In this document: one piece after another, positions 4,276-64,000 of the stretch
Numbering within the stretch: the first letter of the stretch is position 1
How the letters are laid out: each line of letters starts with the position of its first letter
From: a virus
IMG/VR virus record: IMGVR_UViG_3300031521_000025
Coordinates: 1 to 64,000 of that record
Strand: one strand, 5' to 3'
DNA length: 64,000 bases
Position numbers and translations under genes: made by a program
The notes under the pieces: model-generated
Databases searched by the model: none
Told to the model about the DNA's origin: nothing
The model's input: only the letters and a program-made list of their open reading frames with translations

Positions 4276-4938
4276 ATGAATAAACAAGAGAAAATACATA
4301 TGTTAAAAGAGCGTCTAGAGCTTGTAAGTAGTAAAAAAGTTATTCTTAAAGAAGTAAACGAAGGGAAGTATAAATTTGGATGCGCAATGTTGTATTTTGA
4401 CTTTCCTGAATTAAAAGATTTTCAAAAAAAAATATCAACAGATGATATTTATAATAAACCAGGATTCGGACTTGAAACTGAACCTCATTTAACTTTATTA
4501 TATGGTTTTCATTATAAAGAAACAAATAGTGAAGAAGTATTTAAAGAAATTCTAAAAACTAAACTTCCACAATTGCTTTTACATAATGTTTCTTCTTTTA
4601 ACAATAAAGATTTTGATGTACTTAAATTTGATTGCGAACAACAAGTAGGTAGAGGAATATATTCAAAGGAAAAAGATCCTTTGTTTAAAATTAATAAAGA
4701 TTTAACATTAAACTTTTCTTATACGTCAGATTTTCCTGATTATCATCCACACTCTACTATAGCTTATCTTAATTCAGGTACAGCAAAAAAATATATTGAA
4801 ATGTTTAAAGAAGAGTTTTTTACAGTTAATCCTTATAAAATTGTTTATTCGGAACCAATTGATAATGGAAATAAAACTAAAAAGTTTGAACATATTTTAT
4901 CAAAAGAGGAAAAATTACCGAAAACTATAATAAAATAA
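4276..4938 (+). CDS. 2H phosphoesterase, T4 gp57B/Acb1-like (candidate anti-CBASS nuclease)
   Basis: Two HxT motifs: EPHLTLLYG and DYHPHSTIAY; N-terminal shared 18-aa motif. Confidence 0.8.
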   Translation: MNKQEKIHMLKERLELVSSKKVILKEVNEGKYKFGCAMLYFDFPELKDFQKKISTDDIYNKPGFGLETEPHLTLLYGFHYKETNSEEVFKEILKTKLPQLLLHNVSSFNNKDFDVLKFDCEQQVGRGIYSKEKDPLFKINKDLTLNFSYTSDFPDYHPHSTIAYLNSGTAKKYIEMFKEEFFTVNPYKIVYSEPIDNGNKTKKFEHILSKEEKLPKTIIK

Positions 4939-4940
4939 TT

Positions 4941-5567
4941 ATGCTGACTTTAGAATATTTAGGAACTTTAGATGATAGAACTAGAACAGAAGTAGTTCTC
5001 AAAGAATATATTAAGTGTATTAGAGATCCTTTATATACAATTAAAAATTATTTTCCTATTTCAGACCCTGCTACTGGTCTTGAATCTTTATTTAATCCTT
5101 ATCCTTATCAAGAAAGAGCAATAAAAAGTTTTGAAGAGTTTAGTTATAATTTAACTATGAAAACAAGACAAACAGGCTTAACAACTGTTTCTCAAGCTTA
5201 TGTTGCATGGTATATGGCAACAAAAAAGAAAAAAGTCGTAAATGCATTAGCACAAGAGAAAAAAACATCTCGTAAGTTTTTAAAAGGAGTTAGAGAGTTT
5301 TTAGATGGAGCAAGAAAAAAAGCTCCATGGTTAATACCTGATTATATTGTTGGTAATGATGCTAAAGAATCTTTTGGGTTAGTTAACGGTAGTACTATCT
5401 TAGCAGAAGCTAATAAACCTGATGCTTGTCGTGGAGATACAATATCACTTCTATGTATAGATGAATCCATTTCATTTGATACTAACGTATTAATACGAAA
5501 TAAATCAAGCAAAGCTTTAAGTAAAGTAGAAATAGGTAAAATATTTTATGATGAAAGTTATAAATAG
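4941..5567 (+). CDS. terL: Terminase large subunit N-terminal ATPase fragment fused to a split-intein N part
   Basis: YPYQ adenine-binding motif, KTRQTGLTT Walker A, RG...LLCIDE Walker B, then a 33-aa intein-like tail. Confidence 0.9.
   Translation: MLTLEYLGTLDDRTRTEVVLKEYIKCIRDPLYTIKNYFPISDPATGLESLFNPYPYQERAIKSFEEFSYNLTMKTRQTGLTTVSQAYVAWYMATKKKKVVNALAQEKKTSRKFLKGVREFLDGARKKAPWLIPDYIVGNDAKESFGLVNGSTILAEANKPDACRGDTISLLCIDESISFDTNVLIRNKSSKALSKVEIGKIFYDESYK
5466..5564 (+). mobile_element. Split intein N-fragment (IntN, 33 aa, Ser1)
   Basis: SISFDTNVLIR matches intein block A directly after Walker B DE; ends VEIGKIFY like short atypical IntN fragments. Confidence 0.8.
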
Positions 5568-5606
5568 TTGATAATCCTTAGTATTTAAAACAAAAAACAA
5601 ATTGTA

Positions 5607-5831
5607 ATGAAATTAGAAATATTTAAATGCGGAACTCCAGTAGTTATTATTGTAAGTAAACAAAAAGCAACAATTTCTATGGTTCAAATAAAATATGATC
5701 AAATTCTATATGAATGTTCCTTTTACAATCCAGAAATAAATTCTCACCAAACATTATTATTACATAGTGAAGAGTTTTCTATTAGACAAGGAGAAGGTAA
5801 AAATATAATTGGTTTTAAATATAAAATATAA
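5607..5831 (+). CDS. Hypothetical protein lying between the terminase halves
   Basis: 74-aa ORF; GTATTTAA motif at 5581; A-rich start context. Confidence 0.65.
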   Translation: MKLEIFKCGTPVVIIVSKQKATISMVQIKYDQILYECSFYNPEINSHQTLLLHSEEFSIRQGEGKNIIGFKYKI

Positions 5832-5836
5832 AAAAA

Positions 5837-6514
5837 ATGAATTTAGCGTTATTAACTTCTATAGGAAAGTTTGTTTTAAATCCCAAAGTTTACAAAACAA
5901 TAGGGATAATAATAATTGTTTTAATGTTTTTGTATCTTTTTATTGATAGAAACAATCAAGAAGCTAATGCTATTAGACAAACAGCAAATGTCGCTGCTTT
6001 AAATAAACAATCAAAAGAATACAAAGATAAGTTAGATCAAATAGTAATTGAAAACGGCGTTTTAATTCTTTCAAAAAAAGAAATTAAAGAATCTAGCTCA
6101 AAAGAGATAGAATTTATGAAAAAACAATTAGAGGTAAAAGATATTAAAATTAGAAATTTAATATCAATGAATACTGGTTCTATAAAAACCCATAGTCAAG
6201 GAAGTGTTGTTTTACGTGATACTATTACTCAACATGATACTGTTGTAAGTAAAATTGATACTTTAATGTTTGGTGTATGGACTAATCCTTGGGATAGTAT
6301 TAATTTTAAATTAAAGATTCCTGAGTTCAAGCTTGATTTTGATTTATATACTAATGATACTATTTTTTGCGCAGTTTATAGATATAAAGAAAAACCTTGG
6401 AAAATTAAAAATATTCTCCCTTGGAATTTTAGAGAATGGGTTTATGGAGGAAGTGGTAATTTAACAAGACCTAATTCTAAAGTAAATTTAAAGTTTATTA
6501 ATAAAAAAGACTAA
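5837..6514 (+). CDS. Membrane-anchored coiled-coil protein (possible i-spanin-like)
   Basis: N-terminal TM TIGIIIIVLMFLYLFI, then coiled coil and DT-rich beta region; function is inference. Confidence 0.45.
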   Translation: MNLALLTSIGKFVLNPKVYKTIGIIIIVLMFLYLFIDRNNQEANAIRQTANVAALNKQSKEYKDKLDQIVIENGVLILSKKEIKESSSKEIEFMKKQLEVKDIKIRNLISMNTGSIKTHSQGSVVLRDTITQHDTVVSKIDTLMFGVWTNPWDSINFKLKIPEFKLDFDLYTNDTIFCAVYRYKEKPWKIKNILPWNFREWVYGGSGNLTRPNSKVNLKFINKKD

Positions 6515-6955
6515 GTGGATTATAACGAACTTCAAAAATATATAGAAGAAAATAATGTTGACTTACCTGAAGATGGTGATGAAATAGATTTTAATGTTAT
6601 CGATATAGATAATGTTAATGCTCAAGATTCAAAAGAAATAAAAAAAATATCTGAATGGGAAGTTTTAACACCAACCGGATGGAGTGACTTTTCTTCAATA
6701 AAAAAAATAACAAAACCCTATTGTTACGAAATTAAACTTTCTAATGGAAAAGAATTGACAGGCTCTCCTTATCATAAAATTAAAATGTTGGATGATTCTT
6801 TTCAATATTTAAAGTTTGTAAAAAAAGGAGATTTATTAGTTTCTGGAAGTAAAATAATTTCTAAAAAGAAAATAGTAAAAGAAATTGAATTATTTGACTT
6901 GTTAGATGTAGAGAAAGGTAGCGAATATTTTACAAACGAAATAGTGTCAAGCAAC
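6515..6955 (+). mobile_element. Split intein C-fragment (IntC, 147 aa incl. acidic leader)
   Basis: EVLTPTGWSDF, block B SPYH, block F ELFDLLDVE, block G YFTNEIVSSN followed by Cys+1; no block A at its N-terminus. Confidence 0.85.
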
Positions 6956-9496
6956 TGCGCGGCTATCTCATGGATGACTGATATTTGGGCATCGGCAGGT
7001 CTTACTTTAACTAGATCTCAAGGGAGTTGTATCATAATTTCTTGTGTTACAGATGATACTTATGTCTTTACAGATAATGGTATTCAACAAATAAAAGATT
7101 TTATTCCAGAAGATATTGATTGTTCAAAGAAACAAACATGCGAAATAGAGCAATATAATGTTAGAGGAAAAGATATTAAACGCCAAGGTAGTCTTTTTCA
7201 TGTTAATGGTTATTGTGATACAAGAAAAATTACAACAAGTTTTAACTCTGTTGAAAGTAGTAACGAACATAAATATTGGTCATATAAAAATGGAGAATAT
7301 CAATGGACTAAAGCTAAAGAATTAGAAGTAGGAGATTGGTTATGTCACCAATATGGAACAGATTGTTGGGGGAATAATGATGATATTTCCGATTTTGTTA
7401 ATAAGTTAGGAAATGGTAGAAAAGAAGTTAATATTCCAAACTTTTTAACACCTGATTGGTGTTATTTTCTAGGTTTATATATAACAAAAGGGTCGTCGAG
7501 TCATAAGAGTATAACTATATCTTGTGGAGATGGAATTACTGAAATATTTGATAAATTAGGGTTAAGTTACTATAAAAACCCTAGTAATATAGGTGTATCT
7601 TATGAAATTTGCAGAAAAATTTTAATAGAGTTTTTAGAATATTTAGGATTTGATCTTAGTTATACAGCTTCAAAAAAACAAATACCTAAAAGACTAATGT
7701 CTATTAGTAAAGAAAACATGAAAGCTTTACTACAAGGTATATTCGATGGAGATGGTTATTCTACTATAAAAAAGAATAGAGTAGGTATAAATTTAAAATC
7801 ACCTTTGCTTATTGAGCAAATTAGAATTATATTATCTAATTTCGGAATTTTATCTTTGCTATCAATAATTCCGGTAGAAAAAATGAATTCTTATTATAGC
7901 AAAAAAGGAATAGTTCATAGATTTGATTCTCATAATTTAGAAATAGATGGTTTTTTTGCAACAAAGTTTCATGATGAAATAGGATTCAGGTTAGAAAGGA
8001 AGGCTAATACTAGAAAATCAAACAAAGAAGTATTTGCTAGACCAATTCCTAGCGGGATGAAAATTGTAAGAGAATTATGCAAAATAGGAAAAACTTCTGT
8101 AGATACAATTAGAACAAAACACAAAATTTATATTCATTACAATAGTAATCCTGGAAGAGCAAATATAGAAAAATTAATTAATCATATTTCATCGACCAAT
8201 GAAGATTTTTTAAACAATGAAAGAGTAAAAGAAATACAAGATAAAGTTTTAATTGAAAATTCGGTATGGACTCAAATCAAATCTATAGAAGAAAAACAGA
8301 ACTATACTTATGATTTTTCTTTACCTGAAACAAATGATGTAAACTGGTGTCATTCAGTGGTTTACAATTCAATAATCTCCCATAACACACCAAAAGGTAG
8401 CCAAGGATGGTACTTTGACCAGTATACAAACGCTGAAGAAAACGGCTGGAATATAATTGATGCACACTGGACTGAGCATCCGATTTATAACTTAGGTTTA
8501 TATAGATGGAAAATAGATAAAAATCATCCGGATGGAGGCACTTTAGAATTCATGAACGGAGATTCTTGGCCTGATATGACTAATAAAAAAAATGTTCAAC
8601 GTTATAAATGTAAATGCAAAGAGGAATATAATTTTATTAAAGATGGAAAAATAAGAAGTCCATGGTATGATATAGAAGCAAAAAAACTAGGCCCAAGACT
8701 AACTCGTTGTGAATTAGATTGCAGTTTTGCAGGTTCTGGTGGTGAAGTCTTAGATCCAGAAGTTATTAGAGAGCACGAGTTAATTGCGAAAGATATCCCT
8801 CAAATAAATGAAGTTAAAAGTGGCCCTTACAAAAATTACAAACAATACAAACCATATGTTGAAGGGTGTAAATATATTCTTGTTTCTGACGTTGCAACAG
8901 GAGATGGGTCGGATTATTCCACCTTTGTAATCATTAATTTAACTACTTTTGAAATTGTAGCTACTTATAAAGATCAATTTGAAACAACAAAATTTGCAGA
9001 AATAATATTCGAAAAAGCAAAAGAATATGGCAAAGCTTTAGTAATTATAGAACATCAGTTTGGTTTATCTGTTTTGTTAGTGTTAAGAGATTTTTATAAA
9101 TATACTAACATATTTTACTCTACTCTTAAAAAAGATGATCCTACAACTAAAGATAAAAAAAGAAAAATTGGATTTTGGCAATCAGAAAAAACTAGAGCAT
9201 TAGGTGGAGATAAACTTGAAGAAGTTTTAAGAACTAAAGAATTAATTATTCCTTGTACAATGATTATTAATGAAATGTACACATGGGTTTGGAGTAAAAG
9301 AGGAAGAAGAGACCATGCTGAAGGAAAACATGATGACCTACTTATGAGTTTAACAATGGCGTGTTTTTATATATTCTTCATAGAAAGAAAACAAGCTGAC
9401 TATAGAGATGGTATGTTAAAAACAATTGAAAGAAATTTTGTTAACTTAGGAAGCACTTATTCAGATGATAGTTATTTTGATCAATTATTAGAATAA
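6515..9496 (+). CDS. terL: Terminase large subunit C-part: IntC + 29-aa extein + LAGLIDADG intein + ATPase end/nuclease domain
   Basis: GTG start; IntC ends VSSN/C; IIIS/[intein]/TPKG coupling motif; nuclease motifs SDVATGDGSDYS and HDDLLMS. Confidence 0.9.
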   Translation: MDYNELQKYIEENNVDLPEDGDEIDFNVIDIDNVNAQDSKEIKKISEWEVLTPTGWSDFSSIKKITKPYCYEIKLSNGKELTGSPYHKIKMLDDSFQYLKFVKKGDLLVSGSKIISKKKIVKEIELFDLLDVEKGSEYFTNEIVSSNCAAISWMTDIWASAGLTLTRSQGSCIIISCVTDDTYVFTDNGIQQIKDFIPEDIDCSKKQTCEIEQYNVRGKDIKRQGSLFHVNGYCDTRKITTSFNSVESSNEHKYWSYKNGEYQWTKAKELEVGDWLCHQYGTDCWGNNDDISDFVNKLGNGRKEVNIPNFLTPDWCYFLGLYITKGSSSHKSITISCGDGITEIFDKLGLSYYKNPSNIGVSYEICRKILIEFLEYLGFDLSYTASKKQIPKRLMSISKENMKALLQGIFDGDGYSTIKKNRVGINLKSPLLIEQIRIILSNFGILSLLSIIPVEKMNSYYSKKGIVHRFDSHNLEIDGFFATKFHDEIGFRLERKANTRKSNKEVFARPIPSGMKIVRELCKIGKTSVDTIRTKHKIYIHYNSNPGRANIEKLINHISSTNEDFLNNERVKEIQDKVLIENSVWTQIKSIEEKQNYTYDFSLPETNDVNWCHSVVYNSIISHNTPKGSQGWYFDQYTNAEENGWNIIDAHWTEHPIYNLGLYRWKIDKNHPDGGTLEFMNGDSWPDMTNKKNVQRYKCKCKEEYNFIKDGKIRSPWYDIEAKKLGPRLTRCELDCSFAGSGGEVLDPEVIREHELIAKDIPQINEVKSGPYKNYKQYKPYVEGCKYILVSDVATGDGSDYSTFVIINLTTFEIVATYKDQFETTKFAEIIFEKAKEYGKALVIIEHQFGLSVLLVLRDFYKYTNIFYSTLKKDDPTTKDKKRKIGFWQSEKTRALGGDKLEEVLRTKELIIPCTMIINEMYTWVWSKRGRRDHAEGKHDDLLMSLTMACFYIFFIERKQADYRDGMLKTIERNFVNLGSTYSDDSYFDQLLE
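7043..8386 (+). mobile_element. Cis-splicing intein (448 aa) with LAGLIDADG endonuclease domain in terL
   Basis: Starts CVTDDTYV, ends IISHN/T; LAGLIDADG-like YFLGLYITKG and LLQGIFDGDG. Confidence 0.92.
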
Positions 9497-63471: not shown

Positions 63472-64000
63472 AAAAGTCACATTACATGATAAAAATTTTG
63501 TCTTATTTAAGACACAAGATCAAATAAACAATACAATAAAGAAAATTGCAACAAGTATAAACAGTATGAACCCTATTAATTCAGTGTTTATCCCTGTTTT
63601 AAACGGTTCTTTTATGTTTACAAGTGATTTGTGTAAAGAACTAAAAATACTTCCGGAAATTCAATTTATTAAAGTCAAATCTTATGAAGATTTTGAATCA
63701 TCTGGCAAGGTTACTGAATTAATAGGCTTAAAAGATTCTTTAGAAGGAAAAACTGTTTTTATTATTGAAGATATAGTTGATACTGGTATAACAATATCAA
63801 ATCTTTATAATAAAATTAAACTTATGAATCCTAAAGAAATTTATGTAGTTACTTTATTGTTTAAACCAGATAAATATAATGGAGGTCTTGATATAAACAT
63901 TTTATATGGTTTTTCAATTGCAAATGATTTTGTGGTTGGTTATGGAATGGATTATAATGAACTCGGTAGAAATCTTAAAGAAATTTATGTTTTAAAAGAA
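63464..64000 (+). CDS. hpt: Hypoxanthine phosphoribosyltransferase (runs off the window end)
   Basis: Manual translation: VLNGSFMFTSDL, IIEDIVDTG PRPP loop, FVVGYGMDYNELGRNL; missing from the ORF track because no stop is in the window. Confidence 0.92.
   Translation, partial: MNKKVTLHDKNFVLFKTQDQINNTIKKIATSINSMNPINSVFIPVLNGSFMFTSDLCKELKILPEIQFIKVKSYEDFESSGKVTELIGLKDSLEGKTVFIIEDIVDTGITISNLYNKIKLMNPKEIYVVTLLFKPDKYNGGLDINILYGFSIANDFVVGYGMDYNELGRNLKEIYVLKE

Follow-up and report, generated by a model that had tools for sequence, protein, structure and literature searches.

GOS-TerL is a natural intein that is split at an atypical position and resides in a terminase locus. Its N-terminal fragment (IntN) is 37 amino acids (aa) long and can be trimmed to 27, residue 1 of the intein is Ser, and the residue that follows the intein (+1) is Cys (PMC11766414). 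The GOS terminase locus was described by Dassa et al. in 2009 (PMC2677866), and a review citing Bachmann and Mootz 2015 gives the rate of GOS-TerL as 2.4e-3 per s at 37 C (PMC11766414). The same combination of Ser1 and Cys+1 inactivates AceL-TerL, a close homologue (PMC11766414). Here we describe the gene for the large terminase subunit (TerL) of an uncultured T4-like phage, which lies in the IMG/VR record IMGVR_UViG_3300031521_000025. The source record is 111 kb long and about 41% complete, and the window analyzed in this study is the stretch from position 1 to position 64,000 of it. The TerL of this phage is very probably made as two polypeptides, which would be joined post-translationally by an atypically split class-1 intein. 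An initial annotation of the window, made from its letters and open reading frames, had proposed such a split.

Results

The open reading frame (ORF) at 4941-5567 on the plus strand encodes the N-terminal part of the terminase (TerL-N, 208 aa). As read from the ORF, the Walker B motif LLCIDE ends at residue 175, and a tail of 33 aa, which begins with Ser and contains no Cys, runs from there to the stop codon. After 947 nt the ORF at 6515-9496 begins with GTG on the same strand and encodes the C-terminal part (TerL-C, 993 aa). Residues 1-147 of TerL-C end in SSN, the codon at 6956-6958 is that of the Cys at +1, and AAISW follows. Block B (SPYH, with S84 and H87) and block F (LFDLLDV) of inteins were seen in TerL-C, and no block A was found on reading the sequence of this ORF. 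What the initial annotation had read at this locus, namely the LLCIDE motif with its 33-aa Ser1 tail, the gap of about 950 bp, the missing block A and the SSN/CAAISW end, was confirmed on rereading. The parts of the locus are as follows.

4941..5465, plus strand: TerL N-extein, residues 1-175; N-terminal subdomain of the ATPase, with Walker A (TRQTGLT) and Walker B (LLCIDE, with the catalytic Glu)
5466..5567 including the stop codon at 5565-5567, plus strand: IntN, 33 aa, Ser1, no Cys; aligned to contiguous inteins and to other IntN tails
5607..5831, plus strand: intervening ORF, 74 aa; small phage protein, not an endonuclease by family searches and Atlas neighbours
5837..6514, plus strand: intervening ORF, 225 aa; DUF6549 protein (Pfam DUF6549, E 3.7e-14) with an N-terminal membrane helix
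6515..6655, plus strand: leader of the C-terminal intein fragment (IntC), residues 1-47, GTG start, net charge -11; its last 9 or so residues are the family-wide start of IntC, and its first 38, with the IDIDNV motif, are specific to a subclade
6656..6955, plus strand: IntC core, residues 48-147; WEVLTP strand, SPYH, LFDLLDV and block G ending in SSN (Asn147 codon at 6953-6955)
6956..7042, plus strand: extein segment between the two inteins, 29 aa, Cys+1 first (CAAISW...); collinear with the intein-less P0011, P0013, L002 and L003
7043..8386, plus strand: second, contiguous intein, 448 aa, with a LAGLIDADG domain; Cys1, ends in HN, Thr+1
8387..9496 including the stop codon, plus strand: remaining TerL C-extein, 369 aa; end of the ATPase domain and nuclease domain, with PHROG terminase matches at 625-965 and 815-954 and 92.7% identity to P0008

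The N-extein matched the PHROG large terminase subunit with an E value of 5.7e-29. It also aligned to structures of T4 gp17 (E 3.1e-9), and this alignment stopped exactly at the IDE of Walker B. Residues 46-149 of the IntC protein matched CatC of the consensus atypical TerL intein Cat, which derives from AceL-TerL and GOS-TerL (Protein Data Bank entry 6DSL_B), with an E value of 3.9e-12, and the gp41-1 intein with an E value of 1.7e-4. The match to CatC is far beyond chance.

In the intein-less orthologues P0011, P0013, L002 and L003, (C/V)A(S/A)I(S/T)W comes immediately after IDE. These proteins are 571-574 aa long, and the predicted TerL product of the window is 573 aa when both inteins are removed. 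Because the orthologues read through both sites and match the predicted length, both predicted junctions are exactly right, and the restored junction CIDE-CAAI foreseen in the initial annotation is the one that the orthologues have. Together, the CatC match, the gp17 alignment up to IDE and the orthologue junctions bear out its central claim, that is, a TerL split at Walker B by intein halves of the trans-splicing type.

The class-1 set of residues was complete, with a nucleophile at residue 1, (S/T)xxH in block B, a terminal Asn and a nucleophile at +1. In the window these are Ser176 of TerL-N and S84, H87, N147 and C148 of TerL-C, and all of them are invariant in the clade. The marks of the atypically split TerL inteins, that is, a TerL host, a site after the Walker B Glu, separate polypeptides with a short IntN (about 25-37 aa) and a long IntC (over 100 aa), and homology to a characterised member, were all found at this locus, and the Ser1 and Cys+1 of the GOS-TerL subtype were read from its sequence. 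Judged by these sequence comparisons, it is confirmed that an intein of the AceL/GOS-TerL family, itself split at an atypical position, divides the terminase after the Walker B Glu.

The fold could be considered from contiguous mini-inteins that occupy the same TerL site (L008/L082, P0009 and L091). Their first 33 or so residues are IntN-like and the IntC core follows. The window IntN aligned with this first part of L008, P0009 and L091, and also with the IntN tails of six other split loci. The contiguous relative L008, which is 45-47% identical to the window IntC, was modelled from a 24-row family alignment that included the two fragments of the window. It folded as a confident HINT domain with a predicted local distance difference test score (pLDDT) of 91.4. 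The best structural match of the model was VidaL (6VGV; template modelling score, TM, 0.77), and gp41-1 and Cat (6DSL_B; root-mean-square deviation 2.1 A) were also matched. In the model the part equivalent to IntN is a strand-strand-helix unit and the split site immediately precedes the WEVLTP strand, a position that agrees with the short-IntN, long-IntC layout of atypically split inteins.

Related inteins were also seen at a second position near this site. In L094 (4860-5264), L124 and P0140 they precede Walker B by a few residues, in front of C..(L/V)DE and not behind the Glu, and in P0140 both Walker B sites are occupied, with an extein of 6 residues left between them.

Splicing itself and its chemistry are inferred by analogy with GOS-TerL. 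The 33-aa IntN (strand-strand-helix) would dock into the incomplete HINT domain of IntC. Ser1 would then bring about an N-O acyl shift at the Glu175-Ser bond, Cys+1 would attack the oxoester to give a thioester branch, Asn147 would cyclise, and an S-N shift would leave a Glu-Cys peptide bond. With this bond, Walker B would run straight into the rest of the ATPase. The contiguous LAGLIDADG intein 29 residues downstream would also have to splice in cis to give the TerL of 573 aa. That splicing with Ser1 and Cys+1 is possible in this family is shown by GOS-TerL (PMC11766414).

The second intein corresponds to residues 177-624 of TerL-C and matched Pfam Intein_splicing (2.8e-12) and LAGLIDADG_3 (3.6e-8). 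It is inserted between IS and TPKG. It is missing from L001 and from the intein-less orthologues, which read IS-TPKG, and is present in P0007, P0008 and P0012.

Conservation of the split

Four relatives, of which the exteins are 58-99% identical to those of the window (N-exteins 98.9%, 79.4% and 58.3%), keep Ser1, an IntN of 31-33 aa and the same position of the stop. A fifth variant, P0164, likewise keeps Ser1, a short IntN and the stop position. In L001 the partner IntC gene lies 141 nt downstream, and an ATG stands at the position of the GTG of the window.

In the comparison with L001, the N-extein showed proportions of nonsynonymous and synonymous differences (pN/pS) of 0.147/0.584; the IntC core showed 0.237/0.664 and the leader 0.285/0.724. 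Ratios of nonsynonymous to synonymous rates (dN/dS) near 0.18 in the IntC core and near 0.14 in the leader indicate purifying selection.

An assembly artefact, by which the 947 nt between the halves, with two ORFs, would have been misjoined into a single uninterrupted terminase gene, is extremely improbable. The TerL-N and TerL-C of the window were found as identical proteins on separate JGI, ENA and Logan contigs. The stop of IntN and the start of IntC are homologously placed in L001, with its 141-nt gap, and in six more distant split loci, and an artefact would not create matching intein halves. At the level of sequence, these data confirm that the split terminase is genuine and conserved.

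Some points weigh against a terminase joined by splicing. With the record only about 41% complete, another intact copy of the terminase gene could lie in the remainder. The IntN evolves fast; it is 39% identical to that of L001, and its pN/pS is 0.41/0.44 over 31 codons. The window IntC folded alone, from a 4-row alignment, gave a poor model with a pLDDT of 48. Finally, the inactivity of Ser1/Cys+1 in AceL-TerL means that Ser1 activity is not automatic in the family. The incomplete record, the divergence of IntN and the AceL-TerL result (PMC11766414) also favour decay of the split intein, that is, halves that no longer splice, so that the terminase either works as a non-covalent complex kept together by those halves or has died, an unsequenced copy having taken its place. 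We regard such decay as improbable. All catalytic positions are kept in five lineages, the key positions of IntN persist in L001 despite the near-neutral rate, and the exteins and IntC are under purifying selection. An unspliced intein would put about 180 foreign residues right after the catalytic Glu. In addition, the second intein and three other fractured essential genes of the same genome suggest a routine reliance on splicing. A search of the 111-kb record found one TerL N-domain and no second one elsewhere in it. Joining of the two polypeptides by the split intein is the reading that we retain.

The gap between the halves

The 74-aa ORF of the gap matched no Pfam or PHROG family. Its Atlas neighbours are viral hypothetical proteins with a small beta-barrel-like fold, and the ORF is missing from L001. 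The Atlas clusters of the 225-aa ORF are viral DUF6549 proteins. The latter ORF is in frame with TerL-C, and its single TAA stop codon abuts the GTG of TerL-C, which suggests that the two may be translationally coupled. All four genes (TerL-N, the two gap ORFs and TerL-C) are on one strand and tightly packed.

Neither gap ORF has a counterpart in any related locus fetched. The gaps of the related split loci range from 65 nt to 1.5 kb, and that of L001 is an empty 141 nt. In three of these loci the gap contains an endonuclease-like gene that overlaps the stop of IntN and the start of IntC:

L084, 3559-5007: endonuclease-like gene, 482 aa; zinc finger, DUF7487 repeats and a TnsA-like C-terminal nuclease
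L086, 3484-4992: endonuclease-like gene, 502 aa; same domains as in L084
L087, 4523-5005: endonuclease-like gene, shorter; zinc finger and, by eye, a similar C-terminal sequence

That is, an endonuclease between the intein halves, which marks the published fractured genes, was found in L084, L086 and L087 and not in the window. When these three endonucleases were used as queries in tblastn, neither an endonuclease nor a remnant of one was matched in the gap or in the rest of the genome.

No group I intron or other RNA family was found in 5300-6800, and a promoter and terminator scan of 4700-6900 gave a signal below the shuffle expectation. Nucleotide and protein searches of cultured phages returned no match to the DNA of the locus or to either gap ORF, and in the cultured-phage search the TerL N-domain was at most 38% identical to those of Flavobacterium and other myoviruses.

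Ser1 and the penultimate residue in the family

An exhaustive profile-free search with IntC gave 474 representative clusters at E<=1e-3, and the best 150 of the 474 were examined. IntC was at the extreme N-terminus of the protein, as in a split intein, in 105 of these 150 clusters and internal in 37.

In the sampled set Ser1 is the minority, being found in five split proteins of the window clade and one contiguous relative (P0070), and Cys1 is found in six other split loci and 32 contiguous relatives. The initial annotation had held that known TerL inteins start with Cys and that the pair of Ser1 and Cys+1 is unusual. GOS-TerL has both Ser1 and Cys+1 (PMC11766414), and this claim has to be given up. 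It had likewise taken the Ser in place of the penultimate His as unusual; the SN/C ending was present in 22 of the best 150 clusters, as compared with 113 for HN/C, and it was also seen in the contiguous L008 and in the Cys1-type split locus L084.

The leader of IntC

The leader that precedes WEVLTP in the window is 47 aa long with a net charge of -11, and the window IntN has a net charge of +2 with six basic residues. Among the best 150 clusters, most split members have about 9 residues before WEVLTP, at least 25 are present in 6 of the 105, and the maximum is 47. A motif of the IDIDNV..Q type is common to six representative clusters, three of which add an N-terminal M.Y.EL..(Y/H)I. The net charges of the leader in the six are -11, -8, -1, -3, -5 and -11. 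Thus the acidic leader of about 40 aa noted in the initial annotation is real and conserved; its acidity, however, varies from -1 to -11, and most members of the family have no long leader.

That annotation had further supposed that the leader is an electrostatic capture arm, which would pair with the Lys-rich IntN and speed association. The opposite charges of leader and IntN in the window, the net negative charge of all six motif-bearing leaders and the purifying selection on the leader agree with this idea, and yet we think it unlikely. What is conserved is a hydrophobic and acidic motif rather than charge as such, and the charge itself is as variable as described above. About 94% of the split members of the family work with leaders of about 9 aa, and basic IntNs also pair with short-leader IntCs, for example in L086 (counted by hand).

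The protein P0070 (801 aa, on a 69-kb Logan contig) also bears on this question. It has a contiguous Ser1/Cys+1 intein at the same Walker B site, and in it the region of the leader motif is an internal loop that separates the IntN-like part from the IntC core. P0070 is either an ancestral or a re-fused form. That the segment is a loop inside a contiguous intein speaks against a capture arm; it means that the leader behaves as an extension at the split site. Most likely, the leader is a conserved flexible extension at this site.

We also considered the leader as a decayed copy of IntN and rejected it. Smith-Waterman comparison with 12 IntNs and shuffles gave a p value of 0.97 with the window leader, 0.3-0.8 with that of L001 and 0.05 with that of P0007, and aligning the profiles of leader and IntN in hhalign gave a probability of 3.8%.

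Probable allele replacement and intein-only relatives

P0008 is the TerL-C of a sister phage. Its identity to the window is 100% in the 29-aa extein, 92.4% in the second intein and 92.7% in the C-extein, and only 38% in the IntC core; its IntC has a 9-aa leader and ends in SGN. The IntC of P0008 is 41-48% identical to IntCs that sit on terminases of which the exteins are only 26-39% identical. This looks like a replacement of the intein allele at one site and not like in-place divergence.

The 90% cluster of the window TerL-C includes the 180-aa proteins P0165 (Logan, 5 contigs) and P0166 (ENA). Their first 147 residues are 94.6% identical to the leader and IntC of the window and end in SHN. 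A Cys follows at once, and the protein ends 32 residues after it. In comparisons with 11 usable IntNs of the family, this tail was significantly similar to 10, with a score that 0 of 300 shuffles reached. The contigs of P0165 and P0166 are equal in size to those that hold P0002 and P0008. These findings suggest that sister phages may have a three-gene terminase with an intein-only middle gene, where the adjacency of the genes comes only from the equal-sized contigs.

Among the representatives there were also proteins without any extein (P0015 and P0142) and with a mini-extein (P0122, 9 residues; P0140, 6 residues). P0142, P0122 and P0140 are on contigs much longer than the gene, and P0015 is on a contig of 932 nt. 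We observed that the intein-only proteins of 150-180 aa consist of an IntC and then a Cys1 IntN of 33-38 aa before the stop, so that one Cys is both +1 and residue 1.

Taken comprehensively, the leader-bearing IntC might be a portable module of a natural relay-splicing system, in which the sister terminase would be built from three genes by two successive trans-splicings and the leader would be more than a passive linker, with a function in the capture of fragments or in solubility. We offer this as a tentative possibility. If it is true, the +1 residue of the first intein and residue 1 of the second are one and the same Cys, and the window TerL-C has the architecture that the second splicing would yield. 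IMG/VR scans with P0008, with the DUF6549 protein and with the IntC alignment found no adaptor locus, and within the search terms tried we found no published description of an intein-only adaptor arrangement.

Other observations on the genome

The ORF at 4276-4938, upstream of TerL-N, had a weak match to 2H phosphoesterases, 2'-5' RNA ligase-like, and a faint match to Acb1. By eye, a similar-looking segment forms the middle of a 653-aa ORF in L001. Outside the window, at about 66.0-67.2, 74.5-76.2 and 95.2-95.5 kb of the same genome, there were more Intein_splicing matches with stops between the parts.

Discussion

Our findings add another natural Ser1/Cys+1 atypically split TerL intein to intein biology, with relatives at several distances. 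That is, Cys1 split, contiguous Cys1 and one contiguous Ser1 relatives as well as intein-less orthologues are at hand, and they make a set for asking how a Ser oxoester passes to Cys. For the biology of the phage, the packaging motor would appear to need one trans-splicing and one cis-splicing event, at two motifs of the ATPase. The most interesting material is in the relatives, namely genes that seem to encode intein-only adaptors, and an apparent exchange of the IntC allele between near-identical exteins; the subclass with the leader is also of interest.

For protein engineering, the locus offers a Cys-free IntN of 33 aa and an IntC with a conserved N-terminal extension. The initial annotation had called such an IntN useful for semisynthesis, a niche that is already filled by GOS-TerL. 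The Ser1-type GOS-TerL was reportedly described and tested by Bachmann and Mootz in the Journal of Biological Chemistry in 2015, and the use of its short Cys-free IntN for semisynthesis and labelling is reported as well, with a labelling paper in 2017.

Compared with the fractured genes of Dassa et al. 2009 (PMC2677866), the locus has the same order of an N-terminal half with IntN, a gap, and IntC with a C-terminal half, on one strand of a phage genome. In contrast to them, what lies in its gap is a 74-aa ORF plus a gene for a DUF6549 membrane protein, with no endonuclease, whereas L084, L086 and L087, with a TnsA/Vsr-like endonuclease gene in the gap, share the fractured-gene layout.

VidaL (6VGV) is likewise an atypically split mini-HINT domain and was the best match of the modelled relative L008, although its identity to L008 is only 28%. 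With AceL-TerL and Cat (6DSL) the window intein shares the family, the split site, the SxxH of block B and Cys+1, and about 100 residues of its IntC core align to CatC with about 36% identity (counted by hand). In AceL-TerL and Cat, by contrast, residue 1 is Cys and the penultimate residue is His; their IntN measures 25-30 aa, and their IntC, of 104 aa, has no long leader.

The closest likeness is to GOS-TerL, as compared by its published description. Both inteins are naturally split in a myovirus-type large terminase at an atypical site, and both have a short IntN, Ser1 with Cys+1 and class-1 chemistry. The IntC of GOS-TerL is 115 aa long, as compared with 147 aa in the window, where there is an extra leader of 38 aa, and in the GOS locus the fractured gene is accompanied by an endonuclease, which the gap of the window does not have. 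Apart from these differences, the intein of the window belongs to the known GOS-TerL type and is not a new kind.

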